From the IMG/VR virus record IMGVR_UViG_3300022602_000037: 64,000 nucleotides of DNA; one strand, 5' to 3'. The first letter of the stretch is position 1. The number at the start of each line of letters is the position of its first letter. The translations under genes and the position numbers were made by a program. Positions 16,451-47,707 of the stretch are shown piece after piece. Under the pieces are notes generated by a model. That model did no database searches, had not been told where the DNA came from, and worked only from the letters and a program-made list of their open reading frames with translations. The DNA comes from a virus.

Positions 16451-19400
16451 ATGACACAACAAATAATTGATATTGGTATACAAGGTAACGACGGCACCGG
16501 TGATAGTATTCGCGAATCGTTCAATAAAGTTAATGCTAACTTTACAGAAATTTATGCTATTTTTGGTGCTGGCGGTAGTATTAAATTTGGAAACCTTGCA
16601 GATGCTCCAGGTAATAGTACATTCAGTGTAGTAAGTGCAACTGGCAATGGATCTATTGCAACTATCAACTTTACCAATCCTAACCCAGGGCTAGGGCTTC
16701 CATTTAGTATTGGACAAAATATTATTGTTACTGGCAATATTCCTACTTCGTATAATGGAAATTATATTGTAACTAATGCAACTACAACTAGTGTTACATT
16801 CACTAGTTCGGGTAGTGGTGCGCTAACACAAACAGGTAAAATTGCTGGCAGTAGTTATAGTGCTAATCAGATTATTATGGCCAGCACCACTGGCAGTAGT
16901 TTAACAGCTAGAAATGTTGTAGGCGGTAATGGCATAACTATTGATGCATCAAATAATCAACAATTGGTAATTAACTCAAATAGCGGAGGGTTAATTACTG
17001 ATCCGCAACCAACTCTAGGCACTCATATGAATGCCGACGCATTTATTATAGGTAATCTAGCAGATCCAGATCCAAGTTTAGTCAGTCAATTTAATGCAGT
17101 TTTTGCCAGTAAGGGATATACAACCACACTAGGGCAAATGGCTGTTACTGTAAATTACGCTAACAACCATTATCTGCAAGTCACTAATGGACAAATTGTT
17201 GGACCGTTACGTGTTAGAGCAATGCCGAGTGTGGCTCAAACAACCGATCCAGACTATAATGCAAGTTTGACAGGAAACTATGTAGCTACTGAAGCTATAC
17301 AACGTCAACACGCAGTATTGCGAGATGGCGATACTATGACAGGATTGTTAGAATTAAGTGATCATCCTGGCAGTATGGCAGGGTATGGTATTAGAAATGG
17401 TAATGACGATCTGCAAGCGGCTACCAAATTTTATGTAGATAATAATACACATTACAGTAATGTAAATTTATATGTTAGCACAGGTGGCGATGATACACAA
17501 CGTAACACTCCTCCTGGACGAGAAGGCCGTGCGCCGCAGTATGCCTACAAATCAGTTGGTGCTGCCTTACTACAAGCACAAAATTTAATCAATTTAGCGT
17601 TTTCTGAACCCGGACCATATCGTCAGACTATTGCTTATACCATTGGACCAACTCTATATACAAGTAGTATTACCGGTGTTACCTTTAGCGGTGGCAATAG
17701 TGCAGTACAAGGTTATTTGGATGCCGCTAGTTTACTAGAAGCTAACAAATCTTTCATCCAAGCAGAAACTATAGCTTACTTAAACAACAAATATGTAAAT
17801 GCATTTACATTTGATAAAACTCGTTATGCCAATATTATGTCTAATATTGTTAATGGCATAGCATATGACTTAGCATTAGGTACAACATTTAATTCTACTA
17901 CTCAAGCCAGTATATTATTCGATGGCTATAATGCAGATGTGAGCGGTAACTTAACAACAATACTTGCGGCTATTAAAAATGCATCTCAACAGATAACAAA
18001 TTATTCTTATAGTTCAACAAATTTACAAAATTACCTTACTAGTGTAATAAATGCTGTGTGTTATGATTTAGAATTCAATTCTAATTATCAAAGTATTCAG
18101 GTTGCATTAGGATTTAATTATGCAAATACTGGAATAGAAACAACACCATCTATTATCAATACACCTGCAACAGCAACTAGTGGCACGGCAACTGGATCTA
18201 GTTGTACTATATCTGGAACTACTATGATTGTGGGCGGAACTGTGGTAGGTTATTTTGCAGTAGGCATGACATTAAGCGGTGCAGGTATTCTTAACGGAAC
18301 TACTATTATTGCATTAGGTACTGGAACCGGCGGTGCTGGATCATATACTATTAGTTCTAGTTATGGTACTGCTTTAAGTGATATTAAAGTAACTGGAGTT
18401 AATAATACAGTTACCGTTGGAAGCACACAAGGTATGGTGGTGAATGCCGCTATTGTCTTTACTGGAACTAGTTTTGGCAATATTGTACCAGGAAACACTT
18501 ATTATATTACTAGTATTGTAGATAGCACTCATATTACTATTAGTTCTAGTTACGGTGGTTCTAATTATTCCCTAACTACAGCAACTGGTTCTTTGGAAGC
18601 CAATACAACTGCTCCAAGTGAAATAGTTGGTATCCTTACAAATTTAGGAACACAAATTTCAGCACTATCGGCTGTGGCTACCAGTAGCACTATTTCCAGT
18701 TCGATTGAGACTATTCTTGCCAACATAGGCAATATCATTGTAACTGGTAGTGTACCAAACCCAACCTTTCCTCCTGTTGTTTCAAATACTGGATTAACCA
18801 GCGCAGTAAATTTATTATTGAATAACATTTCATTTATTCAAGCAGAAGTAATTGCCTACTTGTTGGCAAACTATCCAACAGTTACATATAATAAAACCAC
18901 GTGCCAACGAGATGTAAAATATATTGTATGGGCATTGTGTTATGATTTAACATATGGCGGTAACAGTCAGAGTATACATGCTGGATTGCAATATTGGATT
19001 AATGCTGTACTACAAATTGCTAGTTACGAACAAGCGGCCACAGTTTCAGCTATTGGTTATATTGGTGTTATTGCACAAAATATCGTACAGAATCAAACAC
19101 CAGTTAAACTATATCAAACTGGTGTTATTCAGTATGAAAATTCAACTTTAAGCGGAGGTAGTGTAGCAACATCTTCAATAGCCGCAAACATTACTACTAT
19201 TCAATCGATTGTTGGAAGTAGTAGTCAGCTAAGTCCTACTGTAGTTGCTCCAACAACATCATCAGTATCGACTACACTAGCTACAGCAGTTTCGGCTATT
19301 AAAGCAAATACAACCACTTTAGAATCAAACGCTATTAGTTTTGTAAACAATAACTTCCCTATAATTAACAATACACTTCAACAAACTACTATTAATACAT

Positions 19401-22400
19401 TATTTGGAATAATAACTTCAATATTATCTAATGGTATTAATAGTCGAACAACTCCTACATACTCAACAACAGGGCTGGGAGCCAGTATTGTACAAGCACA
19501 AGCGGCTATTTTAGCTAATATACCTTTCATCACAGCAGAAACTAATGCTTGGATAAATGTTCAATATCCAGCTGTTAGCTACAGTGCAACAAGTAGTACA
19601 AGAGATTTAACATACGTTTTAGAAGCAGTTGTTTATGATATCACTTATGGCGGTAATGCGGCTACTACACAAGCGGCTAATCTATATTATGCAAATGGCA
19701 CGAACCAATTAACTACAGGTCTACCTGCTGTTTGTTCGGCTGCTCTGAATCACGCATTAAATGTAACACAAACTGTAATAGCAAATAGTGTTGTAACTCC
19801 AAGTGTAGGTAATTATATTACTACAACAGGTGTAAGTGTAACTGGCGGTTATGCTACTGTTACATTTGCTAATCAAGGCAGTGTGCCATATACTATAAAT
19901 CAAGTAATAACCATACAAGGTATGACGCCTGGTAATTATAACGGTTATTGGACTGTAACTGGTTGTACTGCAACTAGCGTAACATTCGCCATAAGTAGCA
20001 ATTATGGATCACAAACTGTTGCCGGTAAAATTACTACCCAAGTTCAAAATGCTAGTTGGACACTCAGTTCTGGACAAAGTTCAACTGTCAACACATTGTT
20101 TAATATTGTAACCGGTGTTATTAATTCTGGCACATTGGTTACACCTACTTATCCAAGTATTTCTAGCGCCAGCTCATCATTGCAAACAACATTTGGTATC
20201 ATTCAAAATAATGCATATACCATTTCACAAAATGTAGTAAGTTATTTGAGTACAACCTTTGCTGGCGGATTTAGTTATAACCAAGCTACCTGTTATAGAG
20301 ATATTGGATATATTATTGATGCACAAGCTATCGATTTATTAACAGATGGTACATATCAAAGTATCACTGCCGGTAAAAGTTATTACAAGAATGTAAGTGC
20401 CAAATCTATTGCTATTGGAACACAATTAACCGAGACAATAGATGGTATACAGTTTGCTCAACAACTAGCAGTCCAGGTGTTGAATCAAACCACACAGTCT
20501 CGTTATCAATCATTAGTAACACAACAAGTCAATTCAACAATCGTAATTGGAACTAATACTATTACTGGCACAGCTGGTACTACAGTAACACTAGGTACTC
20601 AAATAAGTTTGGCGGAAGGCCAGGCTATTATAACAGGATCCAGTATTAGTACCAGTGGTGGACTTGGACAAAGCACAACATATTATGTGGCAGCGGCTGT
20701 AACAAATTCATTTACTGTAACTTTAGCATCTAGTTATGCAAATGCTATTGCTGGAATTCCTTTAACTTTTAGTACTCTTGCATATAGCACAAATAATGTA
20801 ATCAGTATCACTGCTGTATATAATGCTACAGTAGGTACAAACGTAGCTACTGGATCATATGTAAGCAATACTACAACACAATTGACTTTGACCAGTGTAA
20901 GTGGAACAATAGTACCCGGCATGGTTATTACTGGAGCTGGTTGGACCAACAGCACTCCTGTTACTGTAGTTAGTATAGTCAGCCCAAGTATAGTAATTAT
21001 TAGCGCGGCTCCTGCTGGCACACCTAGCGGAACTGTAACATTAACTGCAACTCCAGTTACAACACTTAACGCCAACATGAATACTATTATTAGTATTATC
21101 AATGGCGGAGTCGGTGCGGCACCAACACCAAGTTTTGGTAGTGGTTACTATACTGTTACATTTAGTAACGGAGGTAATGGATATGTTGACCAAGGCCAAA
21201 GTGGTGACAATCACATTATTCCTGGTAAAATAATAGTTGGCGATAATAGTAGCACCTATGGCCAAATCATTAGTTACACTCCTGGAGTTAGTTCAGCTAA
21301 TGATACTGTTACATTAAATCTAACTCGTCCGGGATTCTTTACATATATTCCAACTACAGCTTCTGGCTCAAGTGGAAGCTCAAATATAACAGTAGCGTCT
21401 ACAACTTATACCAGTCAGTTCAATAGTACCTCAACTATTGTTGTTGGTTTAGGTGTAACAGGAACAAATATACCGTTAGGAGCAACAGTAACGGCTATAA
21501 ATGGAAATGTCATAACACTGAGTTCTCCATTATCTGCAAACATTACTTCGGGCTCTGTAATATTTGGAGAATTGTTAGACTTTGGAGAAACAGTAGCGGA
21601 TCAGAATATTACTGTGTTTGTTGAAAGTGGTATCTATTATGAAGACTATCCATTAAAACTTTCAGCTAACGTAACTATTCGTGGCGATGACTTCCGTCGT
21701 ACAATTATTCGTCCATTGAATCGTATTAGTCAATCACCATGGCGCAATACTTTCTTCTACAGAGATAGTATTATTGACGGTATGCAAATTGGTTTAATTA
21801 ATTTTTCTGGAACTGATTATGCGGCGGCCACAAATTCAACTGCTTCCGTTAGCGGTACTACCGGTAATATACAAATTACACTAGGCACTGGACAAGCAAG
21901 TCCAACTTGGATCGGATATGTAATCTGTGATGCAACTAGCGAAACTGGTACTGCCGGCAAAGCAGTTATTAACACCGTTAGCGGTAATGTCATGAATTGT
22001 ACTGTAGTCTATCCATTTGCCGCGGTTAAAACTTATGCTGCCGGAACATGGCACATGTACAATACATTGAACTATGGACGTCACTATTTGTCTAATCCAT
22101 TGGATATTAACAGTACTCCATTGAATAATAAAAATATTGACGTATTTTTAGTTAACGATGCTACTCGTATCAAATTAATCACTTGTCAAGGACACGGCGG
22201 ATTTATGATGGTACTTGACCCAGAAGGTCAGATCAAGACTAAGTCACCATATGGTCAAGAATCAGCCAGCTTCTCAGGCAGTATTAATCGTCAACGTTTT
22301 GCTGGTGGTCAATTGATTGATGGATTTGCTGGACGCTTATTTGGTACTATCACCGGAGTATCAAACAATGGGTATTCTATAACTGTTACTGGAAGTTTGA

Positions 22401-25400
22401 ATAGCGGTCTAGATGTACGTGCTCCGCAGACTCCTTGCGCATTTTATATACAAGGTAATCGTTATCAGATCAATAATGTTTTAAGCTATAATAGTTCAAC
22501 CTATACTGTGGTATTAGGACTAGACACTAGCACACCGTTCTATCCTAGTGCTGTTTATAGCAATAGCACACTAACAAGTAATATTGCAAGTGCAGTAGAT
22601 GCGGCTGCTTATGACATGGCATTTGGTAGTAACTATCAAAGTATTAAAACTGGTATTACTTTCCTACAACCGGCAAACTCTGTAGTAGGTTTATCATCAT
22701 CGATTGTTACACAAAGTTTCAGTTATATTAATCAGCAAATAGCGGCACTTGGCAATGTTGATAGTGCAGGTCAAACTGCTATCTCTAACAATTTGACAAT
22801 TATTAATAACATTATTATTAATGGTGTTTATGGAAGTACAAGTGGTATTCCGACTGTTGTATTGCCTAATCCCGCCAATGTAACTACCAATGTGGCTAAT
22901 GCTAAATTGTTATTACAGGCAAACAAAGCATTTATACAAGCTGAAGTAGTTGCTCGCGTATCAGCCAACTACAACGTTGCAAGTTATTCTGGATACAGTG
23001 CCTTAACACTATCTAATAATATGGGGTTTGTTATTGATGCAATAACATATGATTTATTATATGGTGGTAATAGTAGTGTATACGATGTAGTGCAGTGGTT
23101 ATACAATTCAACACTTAATACATTGTATACTGCCGCAGTTGGATATGTTAATACCGTGGCCGGACAAGTAATACAAAAAACAACTGTAACACGCAGTAAC
23201 GGCAATACACAACAACAAGTAACCACAGGATACACAGCGGCTACTAGTACAGAGGCAAGCACAATCACTACACTTGTTGCAGTATTGACAGATTATTTCA
23301 GTCACTCTGGTTCATTTAATAGTTCGACTAGAACATTGCCAACTGTTTCAAGTACAACAACTACTAGTTCATTGTCTACCGATTGGACTAATATTGAAGC
23401 GGCAAAAACAAGTATCCAAAGCAATACAATAACCTATGCTAATAATGGTGCAGGCATTGCTATTAACATTGAAATGGGCGGTAACAAGTCAATGTTGGCC
23501 AATGACTTTACACAAATCAACGATTTGGGTTATGGTATTTTGTGTACTAATGCTGGTTTAACTGAACAAGTTTCAACATTTACTTACTATTGCTATACTG
23601 CTTACTGGGCGTTGAACGGCGGACAGATTCGTTCTGTTGCTGGTTCAAACTCAAACGGTGTTTATGGATTACGTGGTACAGGTTCAGACGTTACTGAATT
23701 ACCGAACGCTGTTAATTTATCAAATAACATGCCGCAAAGTGCTCGTGTTTATAAGCAAGGTACATACGCCACTGCTATGACTCCTACAACAACAACGCAG
23801 GCACTTAATGTTTATATCACCAACTGGGAATATGTCCCATACGGTACAAGTGAATTAGAAATTGATCATACACTTGCTGGTGGCGGTATTACTCGTTATG
23901 AAGTTAGCACAGTAAGTCATACAGCAGTTAATGTTAACGGACAAAACGTTCTTAGCTTGACATTAAGTACTAGTGGCGATAATCAAACTAGTACAAACGG
24001 TCTAGCATACGCATTGTATGACGGACAAATTGTAACTATAAGAAACTTAACCAATATTAAATTTTATAATATTAGTAACGTAAAACCAGTACGTCCAAGT
24101 ACTGCTTTACAATATACTAACAATCTTGCTAGTATCTATCGTATTATTAGTTATGGTTTAACAGAAGCCACCGGTGAATCGTTACCGGCTCACCAATCAG
24201 TGTTAACCATGGATAGTTCATTTGCATATTATAAGTTTGTTGTTGATACTTCAAACATGTTTAATGCCGATCCAACTGTTTATGTAACATCAGGTACTGT
24301 TGCATTAAGCCCAGCAAGTTCAATCAGCACAACACTTTATGTTGTAACTAGTTCATTGACTGGTGGTGCTCCAAGCATTGGACAATATGTCGGCGGTTAT
24401 GGATTTATAAACACAACTGTAACTAATGTTACTACTAGCGGTGCCAATACTGTTATCACACTCAGTGTTGCACCAACTATTGCTCCTATTGGAACTGTTT
24501 GGTTCTCTACTTCTACCATGGGCGGATTAGTTGGCGATAATAAAATTGCTGTTCTAACTATCAGCGATAGCGCAACAATAAGTCAATTAAATTTAGGTAG
24601 TTATATTTTCAGTTGGAATGGACGTACACATCGTATTATCAAATATGTAACTCCGTCTTCTATTGCCAGCGGAACATATAGTCCAACAAGTGGTCCAATA
24701 TTTAATATAACATCAGGCACTAGTATTAGTTCTGCCGCTAGTTATACAGGAGTTGCTCAAACATCAACATCTGGTTCAGGCACTGGCGCAGTATTCACAA
24801 TAACTAAAACAGGAAATGGAACTAGCTATTCTGGTGCAACTACTATAACTGCAACCACATTAGGTTCAGGGTACGCAATAGGCGATACTATTACAATAGC
24901 AGGTGCTAATCTAGGAGGTTCGACTCCTGCTAACAATCTTGTATTCACTATCACCGGATACACATTAGTAGTTACAGGACTAGCAGGAACTATCACAGCT
25001 AACGAGCCAGTTACTGGTACTGGTTTTAACGGCACTCAATTAATTTCTGGAACTCCTGTTCTTACTACCTCTCCTGGTTCAAGTAGCATCACAGCTACAG
25101 TATCATTGAGCATATATCCAGTAAGTCAGCCTAGTGGAACTATAACATTTGGTGGTGCGGCAGTTAACGGTTATTTACAGATAGATCCAAATCCAGTAAT
25201 GAACATAAGTTCAGTAGGTGTAGGTACAAATGCCATGACTTATCAAAGCAATGTTTTGGTAACTGGCAGCAATACACAAAAGGTTATTACATTTAATATA
25301 CCTTATAATACTTTATATTCATACCCTCCAGTTGATAGTACATTATCTGTAAGCGGAAATAGCAACAGCAAATATAACGGCAATTTCCAAGTAGCTAGTG

Positions 25401-28400
25401 TGGTTAATACTAGCCAATTAACTGTTGCTTCAACAGCATTACTACAAGTTGGCATGATTATTAGTACTAGCACAACAGGTTCGTTTGTTGAAACAACTAG
25501 TACTAATCCAACTGGTACGACGATTATTCAAAGTATTGATAGTACGACACAATTTACAGTATCACCTGCTGTTTGGGCTCCTGCTGGGACTAGTATTTCA
25601 GCTATCTTAGTAGCGGTGGTATCTAGTATTACTATCACAAATGCTGGTAGCAATTATACTTCTGCTCCTATACTTACATTCAGTGGTGGCGGTGCAACTA
25701 GTCAAGCATTGGCTACCTGTACTATTTCTAATGGTAGTATTAGTACTGTTACACTTGTAAGTCCAGGTTATGGTTATACTAGCACTCCGACTATCACTAT
25801 TAGTGGTAATAGCGGAAGTGCATATAATACTACTACTGGTACTAACATTATTACATTAAATTCTAGTGCTAATCTACAGGTTAATCAAATTATCATATTT
25901 GGTGGATCAGTATTTGGTAATATTCAAGCTGGTGTACAATATTATATTGCAACTATTAATGGTAATCAAATTACAATCAGTGCAAGTTCAGGTGGCGTTG
26001 GTCTAATATCTTTGACCACTGCTAGCGGTCCTAGCATGACTTGGTATACACCTGGAAATGCTATATTAACTCCAGTGCTAACCAATAGTCCAACAGTAGT
26101 TACTACAGTTGTTTCGGGCGTCGACAATCTACAATTAGGTTTAGTATATCCAACCGATCCTGGAACAAGCGGTAGTGTTACTACAACTACTAATGCTACT
26201 GCATCAATTACATCTAGCACAATTAGTAGTGGCGGTGTATTAACTGTTGGTACTGTCGGTAGCGGTACTGTTGCAGTTGGTATGATATTAACTGGTGGAC
26301 CTTCGAGTGGATCTGGTATTGCTCAGATTAGTTCTTATGCTACAACAGCAACTAGTGGTAACGGAACTACTGCAACTATTACATTTGCGGCGCAGTCCTT
26401 TGTGCCTTATGCAGTAGGTCAGACAATTTTTGTATCAGGTGTAACTCCAACAGGCTATAATGGAACTTATGTAGTCACTGCGGCAACAACAAGTTCTGTA
26501 AGTTATTCTAACACAACAACTGGCAGTCAAACTATTGCTGGTACGGTTGCAAGTACTGTTTACACTTATATTACTTCTAATATTAGTGGTAGCGGCAACG
26601 GCTCTACCTGGCAAACTGCAACAAGCCAAGGTAATAATTTTGCTGTTACTTCTTCTTCGATAACAGGTACTAATAATTTATTAGCACTAAGTACTGTTTC
26701 AAATATATCTGTTGGTAATACAATTACATTTGCTGGCACTACATTTGGTGGAGTTAGTGTAACCACTGTGACTGCTGGTAGTTTTGTTGTAGGTCAAACA
26801 TATACTATAACAAGCGTAGGTACTGCTTCAAGTACTACAACTGTTACAAACTTTACATCAATTGGTGCTGCCAACAACAACGTTGGTACAGTATTTACAG
26901 CAACAGGTGCTGGTAGCGGAAGCGGTCAAGCACTAGTGACATATTATATTACTGAAGTAGTCGGTAGTTCTGTAGCTATTGCTCCGGCTAAAGGTAGTGC
27001 TAATACAACATTAACAACAGCATCTGGTGCTACCTTAACATTCTATACTCCAAGTTATGGTTTTGGTACTAGCTATACAGCAACTACATTTAGTAGTGTA
27101 AGCGGTACTGGACCATACCTAGTAACCTTGAATATTCCTACTACTACTGCTCCGTCGACTAGTGTTTACTACTATGTCAGCGGTAATAGTAATGCTTTAT
27201 ACAATGGTTATTGGCAAGCTACTACTAGTTCGACAACCAGTATTACATTAAGTTATCCATATAACCCAGGTACTTATGGAGTTGGTTCTATAACAACAAT
27301 AACTAGAGAATCAACAAGTAGCACAAGTTCAAGCCTAGGTATTAGTAAACCATTTAACCCTAGCACAAGCACAACATTACGTATAGGATATCCTGCCACT
27401 GGCGGTGCTCAGATTACTGTTCGTATTAGTACTTGCCGTGCTACAGGACATGACTTCTTAGATATCGGTACTGGTGGATTTATTACTAGTAACTATCCAA
27501 ATCAAATTTATGGTAATGCGGCTATAGCTTCTAATGACGCTAATGATGTTGTTGAAGAAACTACAGGTCGTGTGTTCCATGTGTCTACAGACCAAAACGG
27601 TATCTTCCGTGTAGGTCGTTTCTTCAAAGTTGACCAAGGTACTGGTACTGTTACATTCTCAGCGTCTATTGCGTTAAGTAACCTAGACGGTCTAGGATTT
27701 AAGCGTGGTGTTGTTGTAAGTGAATTCTCAACAGATCCTTACATGACAGGCAATGCGGCAGATAGTGTTCCAGTTCAATCTGCTGTTAGAAGCTTTATTG
27801 ATTATCGTTTAGGATTAGACTACGGTGGTAATCCAGTTGCTACAAGTAGTTTAATTGGTCCAGGATACTTGGCACTAAATGGTGTCTTAGGTATGAAAGG
27901 CAACTTGAATATGGCAAGTTATCAAATTGGTAACTTGACTATGCCTAATAGTGCTATTACACCTTATGATGCGGCTAATAGAGGTTATGTAGATGTAAAC
28001 GCAAGTGCGCTGAATAATTTATTCAAACTAAATGACCAAGCTATTGGTGCAGTTGCAACATTTGTAAGTTTCAGTAGTACAGGTAATACTGTTACATTGT
28101 CGGGTGTTTTTGGTACTATACTAGTTGGTATGGTTATCAATGGCACTGGATTTACAGGTGGACAGATTGTAACTAGTGTTAATATTACAGCAGGTGCTAC
28201 ACAGTCGGTGGGCGGTAGCGGTACTGTTACTCTAAACAACACCTATAATACAAGCCCAAGTGGCACAATGACATTTAATAACCTAAATAATGGTAATTTA
28301 CATGTATACGATGGTGTTTATGGACAATGGACTAATGTTCCTTTACCAACTACAACTGCTAATGGCAATCAAATTGGTATCACATATACACATGGCACTC

Positions 28401-30250
28401 CTGGATATTTTACAGCAACTATTTTATCTGGAGTTGTAGTTAACTCTGCCGTAAGTGCCAGTGCAGGTATTGCACAAAGTAAATTAGCATTACAAGCGGC
28501 AACTGCCCAACCGTCAGGTCAAAGCTCGTATCAACAAAGTACACTTGGTTTGAGTAGTTTCAATAATCAAGTGTTTACTTCGACTAATGGTTGGATTAAC
28601 CTAGCTCAATCCGCTAGTGTGCAAACAGGGTATGTATCTGGAGGAACTTCAGGAACAAGTACAACAATGGTTGTTGTTAGTACAAATAACATTGTGCCTG
28701 GAATGGTAGTATCTGGTATTGGATTTACCAGTAGTACTCAAGTTGTTCTAAGTGTAACTAACTCAACCACTCTTGTTTTAAGTGCAGTAGCTGACGGAAT
28801 TCCAAGCGGTACATTAACATTCGCCAATAGCGGTATAGGTCTTCCATACTTGCAACAAATTGGCACTGGTTATGTATTAGGTAATTTGAGCGGATCTAGT
28901 TCAAGCCCAACAACGATTACTCCAGGAGCTGTAGTAAGTGCTGGAGATGGTTTGAAGAATGCCTTGTTTAGTGTTACAAATTCAGTAACAAGCAATGTCA
29001 ATTCTGCGGCAATGTTGGTGTTGTATGACGGTATTACTACAGCCGATAATACGTATGGCGTTATCGGTATAACAACAAGTGGGTCGGCTAATAAATTAGT
29101 TAAAACTGGTTCAGACGGATCTTTAAGTGCGGCATTATTAAACATTGGTGGCTATAAGGCTATTAGCTCGGCTGGTAGTACAATTAGTTACTTTACTCCT
29201 GGTCAATTTACATTTATGACCAGTCAGGACGTTAGCGGTAGTGCAACAACTACTATCAGCGGTGTGTTAAATGCGTCTGGGACTTTAATATCAACTACAC
29301 TTGAAACAGGTGCTAGTGTAAGCACTCCGGGTACTATGACTGGACAATGGAGTTTAGGTGCGTTAAGTTCATTTAACTTTAGTGCTGGTACTTTACAAAG
29401 TAATAATTTAACTGCTGGTAGTTCCAGCACAGCTGGTACATTTACTGGTGCATGGACATTCAGTCAGGCGTTGACTACAAATGGTATAACCAATACTGGA
29501 AATATTACTAGCAACGGAACAAATAGTGCTACTTTCTACGGTAGTGGAAGTGTTGGGGGAAGTAGCGGAGTAGGGCCATATGTTTACACTCCTAGCGGTT
29601 CTGGTACTGGTGCTATTATGGCATTCCATAGAGCAGGATCTTATGCAATCAACATGGGTCTTGATTCAGATAATGTATTACGCATAGGTGGCTGGAGTGA
29701 TGGTGCTAATACTTATCGATTGCAATTAGATGCATCGGGCAACTTGACTACTCGAGGAACCCACTACACTGGTGGGGTACAAACTACAGTTATTACTACT
29801 GGTGATCCTTATACAGCTGGTACTATAACTGGTGCTTGGACATTAACCGCAAATAGCACACTAAATGCTACATGGGCTGACTTGGCAGAGTACTATGAAG
29901 GCGATCAAGACTACGAACCAGGAACTGTATTGGTGTTTGGTGGAGATAAAGAAGTTACTACAACTACCGTTATCAATGATACTCGCAGTGCCGGTGTAGT
30001 AACAACTAATCCAGCGTATGTAATGAACGCAGAACAAACTGGTATTAAAGTTTGTATTGCACTGGCGGGACGAGTTCCAGTTAAGGTAGTGGGTCGGGTT
30101 AAGAAGGGAGACATGTTAACAACAAGTGCAACTCCTGGATATGCTGTTAAAGCATTGACACCAACACTTGGTGCTGTAATTGGTAAAGCATTAGAAGATA
30201 AAGACTACGGCGAAGCCGGAGTTATCCAAGTAGCCGTAGGGAGAGTATAA
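16451..30250 (+). CDS. giant (4599 aa) tail fibre / baseplate-anchored virion protein
   Basis: N-terminal IG..NDGTGD.IR..F.KVNANF motif like T4 gp9/gp10; Thr/Ser/Gly-rich beta repeats; helical repeats; C-terminal ADLAEYY..D..YEPGTV chaperone/peptidase-like domain. Confidence 0.85.
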   Translation: MTQQIIDIGIQGNDGTGDSIRESFNKVNANFTEIYAIFGAGGSIKFGNLADAPGNSTFSVVSATGNGSIATINFTNPNPGLGLPFSIGQNIIVTGNIPTSYNGNYIVTNATTTSVTFTSSGSGALTQTGKIAGSSYSANQIIMASTTGSSLTARNVVGGNGITIDASNNQQLVINSNSGGLITDPQPTLGTHMNADAFIIGNLADPDPSLVSQFNAVFASKGYTTTLGQMAVTVNYANNHYLQVTNGQIVGPLRVRAMPSVAQTTDPDYNASLTGNYVATEAIQRQHAVLRDGDTMTGLLELSDHPGSMAGYGIRNGNDDLQAATKFYVDNNTHYSNVNLYVSTGGDDTQRNTPPGREGRAPQYAYKSVGAALLQAQNLINLAFSEPGPYRQTIAYTIGPTLYTSSITGVTFSGGNSAVQGYLDAASLLEANKSFIQAETIAYLNNKYVNAFTFDKTRYANIMSNIVNGIAYDLALGTTFNSTTQASILFDGYNADVSGNLTTILAAIKNASQQITNYSYSSTNLQNYLTSVINAVCYDLEFNSNYQSIQVALGFNYANTGIETTPSIINTPATATSGTATGSSCTISGTTMIVGGTVVGYFAVGMTLSGAGILNGTTIIALGTGTGGAGSYTISSSYGTALSDIKVTGVNNTVTVGSTQGMVVNAAIVFTGTSFGNIVPGNTYYITSIVDSTHITISSSYGGSNYSLTTATGSLEANTTAPSEIVGILTNLGTQISALSAVATSSTISSSIETILANIGNIIVTGSVPNPTFPPVVSNTGLTSAVNLLLNNISFIQAEVIAYLLANYPTVTYNKTTCQRDVKYIVWALCYDLTYGGNSQSIHAGLQYWINAVLQIASYEQAATVSAIGYIGVIAQNIVQNQTPVKLYQTGVIQYENSTLSGGSVATSSIAANITTIQSIVGSSSQLSPTVVAPTTSSVSTTLATAVSAIKANTTTLESNAISFVNNNFPIINNTLQQTTINTLFGIITSILSNGINSRTTPTYSTTGLGASIVQAQAAILANIPFITAETNAWINVQYPAVSYSATSSTRDLTYVLEAVVYDITYGGNAATTQAANLYYANGTNQLTTGLPAVCSAALNHALNVTQTVIANSVVTPSVGNYITTTGVSVTGGYATVTFANQGSVPYTINQVITIQGMTPGNYNGYWTVTGCTATSVTFAISSNYGSQTVAGKITTQVQNASWTLSSGQSSTVNTLFNIVTGVINSGTLVTPTYPSISSASSSLQTTFGIIQNNAYTISQNVVSYLSTTFAGGFSYNQATCYRDIGYIIDAQAIDLLTDGTYQSITAGKSYYKNVSAKSIAIGTQLTETIDGIQFAQQLAVQVLNQTTQSRYQSLVTQQVNSTIVIGTNTITGTAGTTVTLGTQISLAEGQAIITGSSISTSGGLGQSTTYYVAAAVTNSFTVTLASSYANAIAGIPLTFSTLAYSTNNVISITAVYNATVGTNVATGSYVSNTTTQLTLTSVSGTIVPGMVITGAGWTNSTPVTVVSIVSPSIVIISAAPAGTPSGTVTLTATPVTTLNANMNTIISIINGGVGAAPTPSFGSGYYTVTFSNGGNGYVDQGQSGDNHIIPGKIIVGDNSSTYGQIISYTPGVSSANDTVTLNLTRPGFFTYIPTTASGSSGSSNITVASTTYTSQFNSTSTIVVGLGVTGTNIPLGATVTAINGNVITLSSPLSANITSGSVIFGELLDFGETVADQNITVFVESGIYYEDYPLKLSANVTIRGDDFRRTIIRPLNRISQSPWRNTFFYRDSIIDGMQIGLINFSGTDYAAATNSTASVSGTTGNIQITLGTGQASPTWIGYVICDATSETGTAGKAVINTVSGNVMNCTVVYPFAAVKTYAAGTWHMYNTLNYGRHYLSNPLDINSTPLNNKNIDVFLVNDATRIKLITCQGHGGFMMVLDPEGQIKTKSPYGQESASFSGSINRQRFAGGQLIDGFAGRLFGTITGVSNNGYSITVTGSLNSGLDVRAPQTPCAFYIQGNRYQINNVLSYNSSTYTVVLGLDTSTPFYPSAVYSNSTLTSNIASAVDAAAYDMAFGSNYQSIKTGITFLQPANSVVGLSSSIVTQSFSYINQQIAALGNVDSAGQTAISNNLTIINNIIINGVYGSTSGIPTVVLPNPANVTTNVANAKLLLQANKAFIQAEVVARVSANYNVASYSGYSALTLSNNMGFVIDAITYDLLYGGNSSVYDVVQWLYNSTLNTLYTAAVGYVNTVAGQVIQKTTVTRSNGNTQQQVTTGYTAATSTEASTITTLVAVLTDYFSHSGSFNSSTRTLPTVSSTTTTSSLSTDWTNIEAAKTSIQSNTITYANNGAGIAINIEMGGNKSMLANDFTQINDLGYGILCTNAGLTEQVSTFTYYCYTAYWALNGGQIRSVAGSNSNGVYGLRGTGSDVTELPNAVNLSNNMPQSARVYKQGTYATAMTPTTTTQALNVYITNWEYVPYGTSELEIDHTLAGGGITRYEVSTVSHTAVNVNGQNVLSLTLSTSGDNQTSTNGLAYALYDGQIVTIRNLTNIKFYNISNVKPVRPSTALQYTNNLASIYRIISYGLTEATGESLPAHQSVLTMDSSFAYYKFVVDTSNMFNADPTVYVTSGTVALSPASSISTTLYVVTSSLTGGAPSIGQYVGGYGFINTTVTNVTTSGANTVITLSVAPTIAPIGTVWFSTSTMGGLVGDNKIAVLTISDSATISQLNLGSYIFSWNGRTHRIIKYVTPSSIASGTYSPTSGPIFNITSGTSISSAASYTGVAQTSTSGSGTGAVFTITKTGNGTSYSGATTITATTLGSGYAIGDTITIAGANLGGSTPANNLVFTITGYTLVVTGLAGTITANEPVTGTGFNGTQLISGTPVLTTSPGSSSITATVSLSIYPVSQPSGTITFGGAAVNGYLQIDPNPVMNISSVGVGTNAMTYQSNVLVTGSNTQKVITFNIPYNTLYSYPPVDSTLSVSGNSNSKYNGNFQVASVVNTSQLTVASTALLQVGMIISTSTTGSFVETTSTNPTGTTIIQSIDSTTQFTVSPAVWAPAGTSISAILVAVVSSITITNAGSNYTSAPILTFSGGGATSQALATCTISNGSISTVTLVSPGYGYTSTPTITISGNSGSAYNTTTGTNIITLNSSANLQVNQIIIFGGSVFGNIQAGVQYYIATINGNQITISASSGGVGLISLTTASGPSMTWYTPGNAILTPVLTNSPTVVTTVVSGVDNLQLGLVYPTDPGTSGSVTTTTNATASITSSTISSGGVLTVGTVGSGTVAVGMILTGGPSSGSGIAQISSYATTATSGNGTTATITFAAQSFVPYAVGQTIFVSGVTPTGYNGTYVVTAATTSSVSYSNTTTGSQTIAGTVASTVYTYITSNISGSGNGSTWQTATSQGNNFAVTSSSITGTNNLLALSTVSNISVGNTITFAGTTFGGVSVTTVTAGSFVVGQTYTITSVGTASSTTTVTNFTSIGAANNNVGTVFTATGAGSGSGQALVTYYITEVVGSSVAIAPAKGSANTTLTTASGATLTFYTPSYGFGTSYTATTFSSVSGTGPYLVTLNIPTTTAPSTSVYYYVSGNSNALYNGYWQATTSSTTSITLSYPYNPGTYGVGSITTITRESTSSTSSSLGISKPFNPSTSTTLRIGYPATGGAQITVRISTCRATGHDFLDIGTGGFITSNYPNQIYGNAAIASNDANDVVEETTGRVFHVSTDQNGIFRVGRFFKVDQGTGTVTFSASIALSNLDGLGFKRGVVVSEFSTDPYMTGNAADSVPVQSAVRSFIDYRLGLDYGGNPVATSSLIGPGYLALNGVLGMKGNLNMASYQIGNLTMPNSAITPYDAANRGYVDVNASALNNLFKLNDQAIGAVATFVSFSSTGNTVTLSGVFGTILVGMVINGTGFTGGQIVTSVNITAGATQSVGGSGTVTLNNTYNTSPSGTMTFNNLNNGNLHVYDGVYGQWTNVPLPTTTANGNQIGITYTHGTPGYFTATILSGVVVNSAVSASAGIAQSKLALQAATAQPSGQSSYQQSTLGLSSFNNQVFTSTNGWINLAQSASVQTGYVSGGTSGTSTTMVVVSTNNIVPGMVVSGIGFTSSTQVVLSVTNSTTLVLSAVADGIPSGTLTFANSGIGLPYLQQIGTGYVLGNLSGSSSSPTTITPGAVVSAGDGLKNALFSVTNSVTSNVNSAAMLVLYDGITTADNTYGVIGITTSGSANKLVKTGSDGSLSAALLNIGGYKAISSAGSTISYFTPGQFTFMTSQDVSGSATTTISGVLNASGTLISTTLETGASVSTPGTMTGQWSLGALSSFNFSAGTLQSNNLTAGSSSTAGTFTGAWTFSQALTTNGITNTGNITSNGTNSATFYGSGSVGGSSGVGPYVYTPSGSGTGAIMAFHRAGSYAINMGLDSDNVLRIGGWSDGANTYRLQLDASGNLTTRGTHYTGGVQTTVITTGDPYTAGTITGAWTLTANSTLNATWADLAEYYEGDQDYEPGTVLVFGGDKEVTTTTVINDTRSAGVVTTNPAYVMNAEQTGIKVCIALAGRVPVKVVGRVKKGDMLTTSATPGYAVKALTPTLGAVIGKALEDKDYGEAGVIQVAVGRV

Positions 30251-44101: not shown

Positions 44102-44665
44102 ATGCATCATGACATTTTAGACGTTATTAAAAATATAGAAGATCTTTATGAAAATAACAGCAGTTTAGCTGTTCTTAAAGACTTTGAACGTGTTCTAGAC
44201 GAAATGGACATGTATGTGTACGAAAACTGGGAAGACGGTGAGTTAGCCTACGGTCCTAAAGTAGATCGTCACTGGATCACAGCAGGTTTCATGTGGGATA
44301 AAGATAAAATGCCTAATCCTGTGGCAGCCAAACGATTAACAGAATTAGGCTGTAAAGTTACATATCAGAAGAGCCATTTGCTAGAACCACGCAAGATACG
44401 CACTCCAGAAGATATTAGACCGAATAGTAAAAAAGGTCGGTTAGATCGTAAACCCATTTGGATTGTAGAAATTACAATGCCTAAAAAAGTAGCCTTTGAT
44501 ATGTATAAGGGCTATATGGACAAGATGAAAAATGAAAACAGACAGCCTGGATCAGGTCCTGGAGAAGCACAAGCGCCGGGAGCCGCACCTGCACCGGCAG
44601 CGCCAGCGGCACCAGGAGGAGCGCCAGCAGGTGGTGGAGCAAATCCAGCAGCCGCACCAGCATAA
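44102..44665 (+). CDS. hypothetical phage protein with Pro/Ala-rich tail
   Basis: 187-aa ORF; CTAAATA late-type motif at 44069. Confidence 0.75.
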   Translation: MHHDILDVIKNIEDLYENNSSLAVLKDFERVLDEMDMYVYENWEDGELAYGPKVDRHWITAGFMWDKDKMPNPVAAKRLTELGCKVTYQKSHLLEPRKIRTPEDIRPNSKKGRLDRKPIWIVEITMPKKVAFDMYKGYMDKMKNENRQPGSGPGEAQAPGAAPAPAAPAAPGGAPAGGGANPAAAPA

Positions 44666-44675
44666 GGAATATAGC

Positions 44676-45407
44676 ATGAGCTTAAATGAAAGTTTACGTG
44701 CGGATGATTTAAGAGATCTTGTTAAAAAAGTTTTCGAGATCGATAGTTTCAAAAGTAAATTAGGAAACGATGAGGATGTTTGTGTACTAAGTTTTACTGT
44801 GGAACATGAAGATCCTGCTAAAGATTTAGAAAATTTTATTGAGATGGGCTACGATTTTGTATTAGATGCAGATTGTACACCCGGCGAACTAGACAGTGGA
44901 AAATATCGTGTATATGTAGAGTTAGAACGTACACGCAATGTTGCAGATCAGATATTTGAAATTATCGAAGGTATTAAAAAATTAACTGGATTATCTGAAA
45001 TGAGATTTCGTTATTTCAAAAGTTTCAAGAGTATGACTGCTACTGAAGAAAATCTAAAACTACTAGTACCAAAAGATAAAAACGAATACAGAACTGTTAC
45101 AGAAAAAAATAAATTAGATAATTTTAGTAATTTCTTTAGTAATAGTTACGCAGATAGTTTAGATGTAATGGAAGAAAGCATTACTTTCAAAAGACCTTTT
45201 AGCGGAAATGTAACATTTAATATATTAAATAGTGGTAGTAAACAAGAAATATATGAAAGTATCAAAGGACCAATTGTATTACAAACAAAAGATATGTCAG
45301 AAGTCATGTTCTTAACTAAAGTAATAGGAAATTATAATATTACTAAAATTGGTACTACCTTTATATTTGAAAATAAAAACTGGGCTGTTGCCCTTGAAAG
45401 GAAATAA
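44676..45407 (+). CDS. hypothetical phage protein
   Basis: MSLNESLR.. start after AAGGA; the longer start in the ORF track overlaps the upstream gene. Confidence 0.7.
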   Translation: MSLNESLRADDLRDLVKKVFEIDSFKSKLGNDEDVCVLSFTVEHEDPAKDLENFIEMGYDFVLDADCTPGELDSGKYRVYVELERTRNVADQIFEIIEGIKKLTGLSEMRFRYFKSFKSMTATEENLKLLVPKDKNEYRTVTEKNKLDNFSNFFSNSYADSLDVMEESITFKRPFSGNVTFNILNSGSKQEIYESIKGPIVLQTKDMSEVMFLTKVIGNYNITKIGTTFIFENKNWAVALERK

Positions 45408-46041: not shown

Positions 46042-46500
46042 ATGTTTAGTTGGCTAATAGAACAAGCATTAGGTCATTTGCCAGTATGGCTATGGCCAGC
46101 TGTAGCAGGTGCAGGAACTGCTGTTTATTTTCTTGCTCATTTGTTATCAAATTTTCCTAATTTCAAACCTTATGCGTTGTTTATTAAACCTGTAGCATTT
46201 ATAATAATACTTGTAGGTGTTTTTATGTACGGGGGTGCTGGTGTTACAGAAATACTGCAAGCACAGATTAAAGAACAAGAAGCTAAGATAGCAGTTGCTC
46301 AACAAGCTAGTTCGGATGCCAACACAGCAGTACAAACAAAAATTGTAACACATACTAAAGTTATACATGATACACAAGTAGTTTATCAAGAAAAAATTAA
46401 AGAAGTTGAAAAGAAAATAGATGCAGATTGCAAAATAGATACAGAAGCTATAAGCATTCTAAATGGTGCCGCTAAAAATCCATTAGGAGCAACAAAATGA
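46042..46500 (+). CDS. putative inner-membrane spanin (Rz-like)
   Basis: TM segments plus a coiled coil; directly after the endolysin. Confidence 0.65.
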   Translation: MFSWLIEQALGHLPVWLWPAVAGAGTAVYFLAHLLSNFPNFKPYALFIKPVAFIIILVGVFMYGGAGVTEILQAQIKEQEAKIAVAQQASSDANTAVQTKIVTHTKVIHDTQVVYQEKIKEVEKKIDADCKIDTEAISILNGAAKNPLGATK

Positions 46501-46772
46501 AACAATTAATAGTTGCCTCCCTAATTGTATTATTAACCGGTTGTTCAAGTGTAACTGGGCCTAAAATGTCAATGACTTGGCCAGATACGCCTCCAGATCT
46601 TAAAACTTCATGTGCAGATCTAGCACAGGTTGATCCTAACACAACTAAATTGAGCGATGCATTAAATGTAATTACTTCAAATTATAGCCAATACTATCTT
46701 TGTAAAGACAAAGTAGATAACTGGTTAGATTGGTATAGTACACAGCAGAAAATATATAATAGTATTAAATAA
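46497..46772 (+). CDS. putative outer-membrane spanin lipoprotein (Rz1-like)
   Basis: Signal peptide with lipobox LTGC; Pro-rich segment. Confidence 0.7.
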   Translation: MKQLIVASLIVLLTGCSSVTGPKMSMTWPDTPPDLKTSCADLAQVDPNTTKLSDALNVITSNYSQYYLCKDKVDNWLDWYSTQQKIYNSIK

Positions 46773-46801
46773 ATACGTATATAAAGACAAAGGAGCGAGC
46801 A

Positions 46802-47467
46802 ATGTCAGAAAAAAGAGATAACGCAGAATGGATGCAAAGATTGTGGCGTCCGGCAATGGGGTGGATGTATATGCTAATCTGTTTATTAGATATGGCAGTA
46901 TTTCCAGTTCTTTGGGCCTTATGGCAAGGTATTAATCATACACCAATCACACAGTGGAATCCTCTAACACTACAAGGTGCTGGCTTATTCCATATTGCTA
47001 TGGGTGCCGTTTTAGGTATCAGTGCATTTGGTCGTACACAAGAAAAACTAGCAGGTACAGCCGCAAATCCAACTGCTACAAGTCAAACTATCACTAACAA
47101 TCAAAATATGTCAGGCAATGTCGCTGGAGGGTTTGGAAGTGGCCAAGGTAGTATGGGCGGAGGATTTGGCGGATCATCAGGAGGATTTGGCGGTGGAAAC
47201 TCATCATTTGGCGGGGCTCCAGCATTTGGCGCACCTGCGGCAGGAGGATTCGGTTCCTCAACCGGTGGCTTTGGTTCATCAACACCAAACAGTAGCTTCG
47301 GCGGAGGCGGCTTTGGAAGCACACCTTCAACAACAACACCCCCAGCATCAACAGGAGGTTTTGGATCGGGTTTTAACAGCGGGTCAGGAGCAACACCCGC
47401 TACAACGCCAGCAGTAACAGCTAGCGGTAAGAAAGTTGTTCCAACAGCAGATCAACCTGCTTTATAA
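46802..47467 (+). CDS. 3TM-type (GTA-like) holin with FG-repeat C-terminal tail
   Basis: WRPAMGW...GAVLG...FGRT.EK; AATAAATA promoter at 46768. Confidence 0.75.
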   Translation: MSEKRDNAEWMQRLWRPAMGWMYMLICLLDMAVFPVLWALWQGINHTPITQWNPLTLQGAGLFHIAMGAVLGISAFGRTQEKLAGTAANPTATSQTITNNQNMSGNVAGGFGSGQGSMGGGFGGSSGGFGGGNSSFGGAPAFGAPAAGGFGSSTGGFGSSTPNSSFGGGGFGSTPSTTTPPASTGGFGSGFNSGSGATPATTPAVTASGKKVVPTADQPAL

Positions 47468-47477
47468 GGAAAATATT

Positions 47478-47645
47478 ATGAAAAAATTATTAGCATTTTT
47501 AATAGCTAGTTGTGTATTAGCTAGTCCAGTATTAGCAACTGAAAAAGCTAAGGCTCCTGTAAAAAAAGAAGTTAAGCACCACAAAAAAGCAGAAGGCACA
47601 GAAATTGCTGGTACAAAACCAGATACAGCAAAAAAGAAAAAGTAA
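47478..47645 (+). CDS. small secreted basic protein
   Basis: Signal peptide MKKLLAFLIASCVLASPVLA; Lys-rich mature part. Confidence 0.65.
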   Translation: MKKLLAFLIASCVLASPVLATEKAKAPVKKEVKHHKKAEGTEIAGTKPDTAKKKK

Positions 47646-47654
47646 ACCAAAAAC

Positions 47655-47707
47655 TTGACAGGCTCCATTAATGATAGTATAATTACTGTTATTAATGGAG
47701 TTTTTTT
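47655..47707 (+). promoter_or_regulatory. sigma70 promoter nested in a terminator-like hairpin
   Basis: TTGACA-17-TATAAT; 17-bp stem 47663-47700 followed by T7. Confidence 0.8.

Follow-up and report, generated by a model that had tools for sequence, protein, structure and literature searches.

What does a holin-like phage protein do with a tail that reads like part of the nuclear pore? The question is raised by the gene at positions 46802-47467 of virus record IMGVR_UViG_3300022602_000037 in IMG/VR, a stretch of 64,000 nucleotides that we analysed as a whole and refer to as the window. A first reading of the letters alone (the sequence-only reading) had described the product as a holin-like membrane protein with a disordered tail rich in phenylalanine-glycine (FG) motifs, and had proposed that this tail either drives holin clustering by condensation or forms a selective mesh in the pore. 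How holins time their triggering is a classic problem that has yet to be solved: the protein accumulates harmlessly and then coalesces abruptly at an allele-specific critical concentration. Here, we report that the window protein belongs to a large family in which a low-complexity extension is attached to either end of a conserved membrane hairpin, the two layouts being mutually exclusive and each including FG-rich forms, an arrangement that is new here, and we consider what such an appendage may contribute.

An FG-rich tail behind a holin-like core

The open reading frame (ORF), on the plus strand, was confirmed as real and encodes a protein of 221 amino acids (aa) plus stop (Table 1). Hydropathy places two membrane segments at about residues 17-44 and 55-77, and an AlphaFold2 model built on a 57-sequence alignment has helices at residues 6-45 and 55-76; the sequence FGRTQEK, residues 76-82, falls where the second hydrophobic helix ends. 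In the same model the predicted local distance difference test (pLDDT) score is below 50 for almost all of residues 79-203, and this part of the tail is predicted to be disordered. The disordered tail behind a holin-like core that the sequence-only reading had described is borne out by this model and by the motif count, which comes to ten FG.

The tail is unusual in composition. Residues 83-209 contain no Asp, Glu, Lys or Arg across 127 residues, and the charged residues of the distal protein are just K210, K211 and D217, which lie in the C-terminal tip. The same stretch consists of 27% Gly, 15% Ser, 12% Ala, 12% Thr, 7% Pro and 7% Phe, with no Tyr or Trp. Ten of the eleven tail Phe precede Gly, in the contexts GGFG (six times), SSFG (twice), PAFG (once) and GGGGFG, and the motifs are spaced by 4-16 residues, mostly 6-9. 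Only one of 100,000 composition-preserving shuffles of the tail reached ten FG. Tandem Repeats Finder detected no tandem repeat in the DNA of the gene, and the FG motifs are therefore not a recent slippage array.

Conservation of the FG motifs and of the tip

Conservation of the FG motifs in homologues had been set beforehand as a check on the sequence-only reading, and the motifs proved to be conserved in both homologue sets that we compared. All of the 120 best homologues (59-91% identity in the best local alignment, most of them aligning over the full length) keep 7-13 FG, and the residue after Phe in their tails is nearly always Gly. Mean identity of the tail columns in a 111-sequence alignment is 0.81 for F and 0.83 for G, followed by 0.66 for A, 0.56 for S, 0.50 for T and 0.39 for N; in an independent set, 48 distinct IMG/VR genes compared as DNA, the values are 0.84 for F and 0.85 for G. 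Phe and Gly are the best-kept residues of the tail in the two independent sets. The conserved Phe columns of the 48 genes use both TTT and TTC, and Met is the commonest replacement. The median pairwise ratio of nonsynonymous to synonymous substitution rates (dN/dS) is lowest in the core (0.09), with 0.48 in the FG part and 0.42 in the tip; alignment of the low-complexity tail is uncertain, and dN is inflated in consequence. As far as sequence comparison goes, the constraint on the tail is weaker than that on the core but real. Two ORFs that overlap the tail (47101-47322 on the minus strand and 47118-47417 on the plus strand) were considered as genes and rejected as low-complexity artefacts in view of the dN/dS below 1 and the in-frame conservation of the holin frame.

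The tail ends in a conserved tip (GKKVVPxxDQPAL-COOH; given for the C-terminally extended proteins as GKKVVPxFDQPAL-COOH), in which columns G209, P214 and P219 are nearly invariant in the close clade. In an assessment by eye, the motif G(K/R)(K/P)xxPxxxx(Q/E)Px(L/I)-COOH was found in ~30 (roughly half) of 65 diverged C-terminal tails, and this tip motif would appear to be more widespread in the family than FG richness.

Extensions at either terminus across the family

An exhaustive search with the core alone returned at least 906 cluster representatives at 50% identity. The core boundaries could be parsed in 130 of the 150 representatives that were listed out of the 906. Counting 25 or more residues as an extension, 66 of these 130 parsed listed representatives carry a C-terminal extension only, 36 an N-terminal extension only, 28 neither and none both. 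The extensions are low-complexity, rich in A, T, S, P, G, N and Q and highly variable, and FG-rich extensions (four or more FG) occur in both C-terminally extended (C-type) and N-terminally extended (N-type) proteins. On the core tree the FG-rich members are scattered, with a minimum of 12 state changes, of which well-supported branches force at least 4 per layout. With the query's own cluster left out, FG accounts for 42 of the 96 Phe of N-terminal extensions (mean 9.7 and maximum 22 in 2000 shuffles) and for 55 of the 142 Phe of C-terminal extensions (mean 19.5 and maximum 34 in shuffles). Among IMG/VR viral contigs, confirmed relatives numbered 485 with a C-type query and 360 with an N-type query; retention of the FG tail in hundreds of related phages suggests that the tail is probably functional.

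The 360 relatives found with the N-type query make up a sister clade; the 39 distinct genes analysed from it have a median of 5 FG, and 179 of their 295 Phe stand in FG motifs. The order in these proteins is a conserved N-terminal segment of ~40 residues, an uncharged FG region, the hairpin and only 4-5 residues after the second transmembrane (TM) helix. The conserved segment reads M-A-T-L-L-A-K-K ... I-A-T-D-D-E-H-H ... F-P-Q-G-S-x-F-G. The idea that this segment is the same motif as the C-terminal tip was dropped, since a single representative (P0150) resembles it.

A general importance of the FG motifs has to be weighed against several observations. The core tree comprises 84 columns and is poorly resolved. 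FG richness is not universal: most extensions are rich in S, T, P, A and N and contain few FG. The homologue in phage Phosso (L002:3477-4001) has a Q/Y/P-rich, prion-like C-terminal tail on the same core, that of phage Atu_ph07 a short charged tail and that of phage PA5oct no tail. FG richness is one state of a fast-evolving extension.

Predicted topology of the hairpin

Averaged over 133 family members, Lys and Arg number 3.5 in the N-terminal flank (14 residues), 0.42 in the loop (median 11 residues) and 2.67 in the C-terminal flank (12 residues), and W15-R16 and R78/K82 are invariant. This distribution and the invariant basic residues constitute the positive-inside signature of an N-in/C-in hairpin. 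Moreover, N-terminal extensions of 110-150 aa without a signal peptide would hardly be exportable, which argues for both termini being cytoplasmic. Most probably, the protein has two transmembrane domains (TMDs) in an N-in/C-in topology with the tail in the cytoplasm. A periplasmic tail was considered and rejected in view of the charge distribution and the long signal-less N-terminal variants.

As a two-helix hairpin has both its ends on one membrane face, an FG region at either end lands in the same compartment. This placement, predicted as it is, provides what we regard as the strongest argument for a selected, non-accidental FG appendage, and the pattern suggests that an FG-rich cytoplasmic appendage has been repeatedly favoured.

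Evidence for a holin

The holin-like core claimed by the sequence-only reading is supported by family matches and by gene order. Residues 6-78 match PF11351 (GTA_holin_3TM) with 26.1 bits against a gathering cut-off of 24.8 (E 1.4e-5), all 57 of 57 aligned relatives match the same family at E <= 0.01 (best E 2e-8), and phrog_3427, annotated as holin, is matched at 3e-7. The gene closes an endolysin/spanin cassette, and this arrangement recurs: of the 64 related IMG/VR loci in which the upstream DNA exceeds 1.5 kb, 53 contain an endolysin homologue in this DNA and 51 a spanin. In two further loci the order is spanin-endolysin-holin, and the linkage to endolysin and spanin thus survives rearrangement. 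The endolysin of the window carries no export signal and is cytoplasmic, and therefore needs a hole-forming holin; beside the spanins, the cassette contains no other membrane-protein or holin candidate. A precedent for the gene order is the founding member of PF11351, rcc00556 of the Rhodobacter capsulatus gene transfer agent (RcGTA), which adjoins the endolysin gene rcc00555 in a locus required for lysis and particle release (PMC5026251, PMC3423380).

Other features of the protein speak against this assignment. PF11351 describes three TM segments; the window protein has two helices and matches profile positions 61-122 of 123, and the N-terminal extensions of its relatives consist of low-complexity sequence with no third TM segment. 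At 221 aa, the protein is larger than typical holins, and its uncharged tail departs from the short, hydrophilic, highly charged C-terminus by which holins are recognised. On balance, we consider it likely that the protein is a holin or a holin-class lysis protein.

A model for the FG tail and its rivals

Combining the conservation, topology and family data, we tentatively suggest that the protein is a holin whose predicted cytoplasmic FG tail functions as an avidity modulator of raft nucleation and which carries, in addition, a distal docking peptide. In this model, (i) the holin would accumulate in the membrane late in infection, (ii) the TM hairpins would drive sudden coalescence into rafts and holes, by which the cytoplasmic GH19 endolysin would be released, (iii) many weak Phe-mediated contacts would add avidity between neighbouring membrane-tethered holins, and these tail contacts would set the critical concentration and hence the time of lysis, and (iv) the distal peptide would serve a partner as a site of docking or regulation. 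In phage lambda, a short charged cytoplasmic C-terminus modulates holin timing; the FG tail may take the place of this usual holin C-terminus as a cytoplasmic regulatory domain. The model builds on the finding that holins accumulate to an allele-specific critical concentration and then nucleate rafts that give rise to holes (PMC6116005).

The number of motifs sets a limit on what the tail could do. Cohesion of Nup98-type domains is promoted by spacers that lack charge and by short distances between FG motifs (PMC9918544). Engineered Nup98-type GLFG repeats needed about 300 µM to phase-separate with 26 repeats and about 50 µM with 37, the saturation concentration (Csat) dropping exponentially with repeat number (PMC9579204), and by rough extrapolation the Csat of a free chain with 10 motifs would lie in the millimolar range. 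Given that the tail has few FG (10, without Leu) compared with 26 or more repeats, the free tail should not condense alone, which is a point against our model. Condensation by the tail alone appears unlikely by this analogy, and any effect must therefore come from tethering to the membrane and from the valency of oligomers: in a thin layer holding a few thousand tethered chains, with valency multiplied by TM-driven oligomers, weak FG-FG contacts might shift the nucleation threshold. Also to be set against the model is that, to our knowledge, no experiment has been reported on any tailed family member. A bolder version, in which jumbo phages have repeatedly evolved a charge-free cytoplasmic FG domain on a holin that drives two-dimensional condensation and serves as a lysis clock, convergent with the FG nucleoporins, we consider unlikely.

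Alternatively, the protein may be no holin but a conserved jumbo-phage inner-membrane or virion-associated protein with a part in ejection, superinfection exclusion or assembly, its adjacency to lysis genes being incidental. The tail-less PA5oct homologue gp306 (30% identity) was detected by mass spectrometry in virion preparations and is annotated as a virion structural protein (PMC7318152), and its gene is not adjacent to the putative endolysin gene gp368. Endolysin or spanin genes lie within 4 kb in 0 of 78 loci of the N-type clade, where the GH19 endolysin gene is found ~10 kb upstream in three of four complete genomes and ~42 kb away in the fourth, and where the gene lies between virion genes and DnaJ. 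Across clades the conserved neighbours are virion structural genes (phrog_12928, phrog_13138) and DnaJ instead of lysis genes, and the Pfam score is barely above its cut-off. All of these points weigh against a holin. They are countered by the match of every aligned relative to the holin family together with the independent PHROG call, by the tight endolysin/spanin linkage of the C-type clade in two gene orders, and by the lack of another holin candidate in the cassette; moreover, abundant late membrane proteins commonly contaminate virion preparations. No homologue of the GH19 endolysin is present in PA5oct, Phosso or Atu_ph07, and the gene order in these three phages therefore neither supports nor refutes a holin role. 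In sum, a function outside lysis strikes us as quite improbable. If the protein is a holin, the tail may still serve as a tether or handle, that is, as a flexible leash presenting the distal peptide to a partner, or as the initiation point for a chaperone or an AAA+ protease (DnaK/DnaJ, FtsH, ClpA) by which holin level or activity would be controlled, with the FG motifs being binding sites or secondary features and not self-cohesive stickers. The near-invariant residues and wider distribution of the tip, the conserved distal segment that N-type proteins possess in their own right, and an extension at one end but never both would fit a single handle. FtsH is able to initiate on a cytoplasmic tail whichever terminus carries it, and the basic-plus-hydrophobic tip presumably resembles DnaK-type binding motifs. 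DnaJ and ClpA are encoded directly downstream, and a relative encodes a Bax-inhibitor/YccA-like protein; DnaJ and ClpA are, however, core genes of the lineage that are also found in PA5oct with its tail-less homologue, so that the adjacency reflects inherited gene order with no link to the tail, and we rejected the co-occurrence as evidence because all three cultured relatives have the genes. If the tail were no more than a leash, neither the conservation of F and G above all its other residues nor the three- to four-fold excess of FG over shuffles in both layouts would be accounted for. No partner has come to light; a complex prediction for the GH19 endolysin and tail residues 176-221, each with its alignment, gave a score of 0.15 (mark, 0.32) and weighs neither way. 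A tether or handle, the main rival of our model, seems to us rather unlikely.

The two remaining explanations fare worse. The FG pattern could be neutral, having arisen through repeat expansion and biased mutation in a linker that the protein can do without, as the great variation of tail length and composition across the family, the tail-less members and a tail dN/dS five-fold above that of the core might indicate. This explanation is difficult to reconcile with the lack of a DNA tandem repeat, a dN/dS below 1, selective conservation of F and G columns with synonymous codon switches, enrichment of FG over composition-matched shuffles in both layouts and the full exclusion of charged residues over 127 residues, and is in our opinion very unlikely. 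The selective mesh of the sequence-only reading, in which FG tails would fill the lesion and filter passage like the nuclear-pore barrier, has the compositional likeness to cohesive FG domains (PMC9918544) as its single argument. Canonical holin holes are micron-scale and the life of the cell ends within seconds (PMC6116005), and a filter in such a terminal hole would be without obvious use; in addition, there are only ten motifs per chain, the tails are on the predicted cytoplasmic face, and there is no analogue of a transport receptor. A mesh is thus extremely unlikely, and the avidity modulator, tentative as it is, remains the explanation of the tail that we favour.

The lysis cassette, its neighbours and the phage

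The features of the gene and its surroundings are collected in Table 1.

Table 1. Coordinates of the features in and around the holin-family gene (window positions unless a locus number is given; columns, column conservation; AF2, AlphaFold2; K+R, averages of Lys plus Arg)
Feature	Position	Strand	Basis or remark
GH19-type endolysin, 209 aa, no signal peptide or TM segment	45410..46039	+	PF00182 27.5 bits; phrog_181 endolysin 5.8e-75
i-spanin candidate (Rz-like)	46042..46500	+	phrog_1152/2536 Rz-like spanin matches from residue ~47
o-spanin candidate (Rz1/LysC-like lipoprotein, lipobox LLTGC)	46497..46772	+	PF23793 LysC 3.2e-4; phrog_456 6.3e-6
TAAATAC promoter-like motif, 32 nt before ATG	46770..46776	+	overlaps o-spanin stop codon
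Shine-Dalgarno AAGGAG, 6 nt before ATG	46790..46795	+	direct sequence reading
Whole gene, holin-family 2-TM protein with FG-repeat tail	46802..47467	+	221 aa
N-terminal flank, predicted cytoplasmic, residues 1-16 (K4, R5, R13; W15-R16 invariant)	46802..46849	+	K+R, invariant columns
TM helix 1, residues ~17-44 (P17, Y23, C27, D30, P35 invariant)	46850..46933	+	hydropathy, AF2, columns
Predicted periplasmic loop, short, uncharged, residues 45-54 (W52, P54 invariant)	46934..46963	+	hydropathy, columns, K+R
TM helix 2, residues 55-77 (G61, H64, G72 invariant)	46964..47032	+	hydropathy, AF2, columns
Basic juxtamembrane stop-transfer segment RTQEK (R78, E81, K82 invariant)	47033..47047	+	columns, K+R
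Uncharged, predicted disordered low-complexity tail, residues 83-206, G/S/A/T/P/F/N	47048..47419	+	composition, AF2, alignments, dN/dS
FG-dense part of tail, residues 108-192, 10 FG	47123-47377	+	
Conserved C-terminal tip ASGKKVVPTADQPAL-COOH (G209, P214, P219, terminal L/I nearly invariant)	47420..47464	+	columns
Small secreted Lys-rich protein, signal peptide, motif K(I/V)HKK.EGT	47478..47645	+	window and loci L004, L007, L009, L011
Perfect sigma-70 consensus promoter TTGACA-17-TATAAT	47655..47683	+	
N-type clade loci L105-L184	e.g. L105:4001-4681		335-524 kb phages

Within the cassette, a further hydrophobic segment (residues ~14-35) precedes the usual single Rz-type TM segment (residues ~44-66) near the N-terminus of the i-spanin candidate, and a two-TM i-spanin would be unusual. 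The sequence-only reading had assigned to the holin-like gene its own late-type promoter. Of this claim, a promoter-like motif at 46770-46776 stands by its position: of the 24 plus-strand copies of TAAATA in the window, 8 are found 24-36 nt upstream of a listed gene start, with 0.55 expected, and the TAAATA-type element is also common to structural-gene starts. Its lateness would follow by analogy from the T4 TATAAATA precedent. The sigma-70 promoter opens a unit of DnaJ (47714), peptide deformylase (48573) and a ClpA-like ATPase (49063), and as the start of the next unit it marks the end of the lysis unit. The phage DnaJ (47714-48598) is the only other FG-dense protein of the window, its G/F region having 5 FG within 80 aa; an FG-dense G/F region is a normal DnaJ feature, though a curious one to meet beside an FG-tailed membrane protein.

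The small Lys-rich protein encoded between the holin-like gene and the sigma-70 promoter was found by tblastn in 29 of 71 related loci. Its gene lies directly 3' of the C-type holin-like gene in all of the close loci that were read (L004:6674-6850; L007:4689-4892; L009:876-1088; L011 ~701-890) and is not present after the N-type gene in locus L013. The signal peptide is cleavable, and remoter relatives contain two Cys. The protein could be a periplasmic lysis accessory or an antiholin-like factor. Upstream of the cassette, the virion-protein gene at 44102-44665 encodes an A/P/G-rich low-complexity C-terminal tail, and the listed start of the ORF at 44532-45407 overlaps this gene; relatives suggest a start near 44678 (244 aa in L004).

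The source of the window is an uncultured freshwater jumbo phage. Nearly all of its large ORFs are on one strand, among them a single ORF of 4599 aa at 16451-30250, whose product is probably a virion or fibre protein of giant size. For the clamp loader, identity is 52% with Pseudomonas phage PA5oct and 45% with Sinorhizobium phage Phosso; these phages and Atu_ph07 are the nearest cultured relatives, and the genes for DnaJ, peptide deformylase and ClpA are also present in all three. A megablast search of the cassette against cultured phages gave no match. Close DNA relatives come from freshwater and lake metagenomes of several studies, and those related IMG/VR genomes that are complete or nearly so range from 335 to 524 kb. 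In one relative, a Bax-inhibitor-1/YccA-like membrane protein (PF01027) is encoded just upstream of the clamp loader (L013:2-700); the Escherichia coli protein YccA modulates FtsH.

Comparison with known systems

Our full-text literature searches turned up no holin described as having an FG-repeat, glycine-rich or long disordered tail, and the window gene may thus encode a holin-family protein of an unprecedented kind, in which an FG low-complexity domain, predicted to be cytoplasmic, and a terminal peptide can be joined to either end. The family provides a natural series of appendages (none, S/T/P-rich, Q/Y-rich and dense FG) at either end of the hairpin, and this series offers a direct way of testing, by simple lysis-time assays, what weak multivalent interactions contribute to two-dimensional clustering in membranes. 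In addition, the family documents widespread and environmentally abundant FG-type low-complexity domains outside eukaryotes and flags the conserved terminal peptide as a putative partner-docking site.

The two C-terminal membrane helices of PF11351, phrog_3427 and the RcGTA holin rcc00556 (the TCDB-type 'GTA holin' family) are homologous to those of the window protein, and in both systems the gene is beside that of an endolysin (PMC5026251). The window protein differs in that the first helix is missing and in that the FG tail of ~140 aa and the tip lie outside the Pfam model, and the family described here comes from phages of 335-524 kb and not from alphaproteobacterial gene transfer agents. 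With class II holins, such as S21 68 of phage 21, the protein shares the predicted N-in/C-in topology with two TMDs, and with lambda S105 a cytoplasmic (here predicted) C-terminal segment after the last TMD; classical cassettes likewise contain an endolysin and spanins, and triggering by rafts at a critical concentration (PMC6116005) would apply here as well. These likenesses of topology and layout end at the tail, which is short and highly charged in the classical holins and ~140 aa long and uncharged for 127 residues in the window protein. As the endolysin of the window is soluble and without a signal-anchor-release (SAR) domain, a large-hole holin is expected and not a pinholin. Cultured jumbo phages provide three homologues, PA5oct gp306, Atu_ph07 gp285 and Phosso gp208, which are 28-33% identical in the two-TM core and come from phages whose backbone matches that of the window (DnaJ, ClpA and a clamp loader of 45-52% identity); unlike the window gene, these homologues are not beside a GH19 endolysin gene. 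An analogy of architecture only can be drawn with E. coli SSB, in which a Gly/Gln/Pro-rich disordered linker contributes to condensation and is followed by a conserved acidic tip. There, too, a low-complexity linker, for which cooperativity has been described (10.1101/2022.01.17.476650), leads to a short conserved docking tip, while the protein, the sequence of the tip and the cellular place are all unrelated.

The likeness to nucleoporins from which the sequence-only reading started holds for composition and fails for homology. Like the cohesive FG nucleoporins (the GLFG domains of Nup98, Nup100 and Nup116 and the N-terminal FG domains of Nup62 and Nsp1), the tail is disordered as far as predicted, depleted of charge and has Phe as almost its sole hydrophobic residue (PMC9918544), with FG motifs separated by short G/S/T/A/P/N spacers. 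No Pfam family, and so no nucleoporin FG family, was found at E <= 10 on the tail (residues 84-221) or on two N-type FG regions, and an Atlas search with the tail gave no usable feature match, its structural rows being meaningless for a disordered region. There are ~10 motifs as opposed to about 40-50 in the nucleoporins, and they are mostly GGFG and SSFG without Leu; the window protein is anchored by a TM hairpin in the bacterial inner membrane, and no transport receptors are known for it. Taken together, these sequence features suggest that the resemblance between the phage tail and the cohesive FG nucleoporins is at most one of convergent composition, and not of homology.

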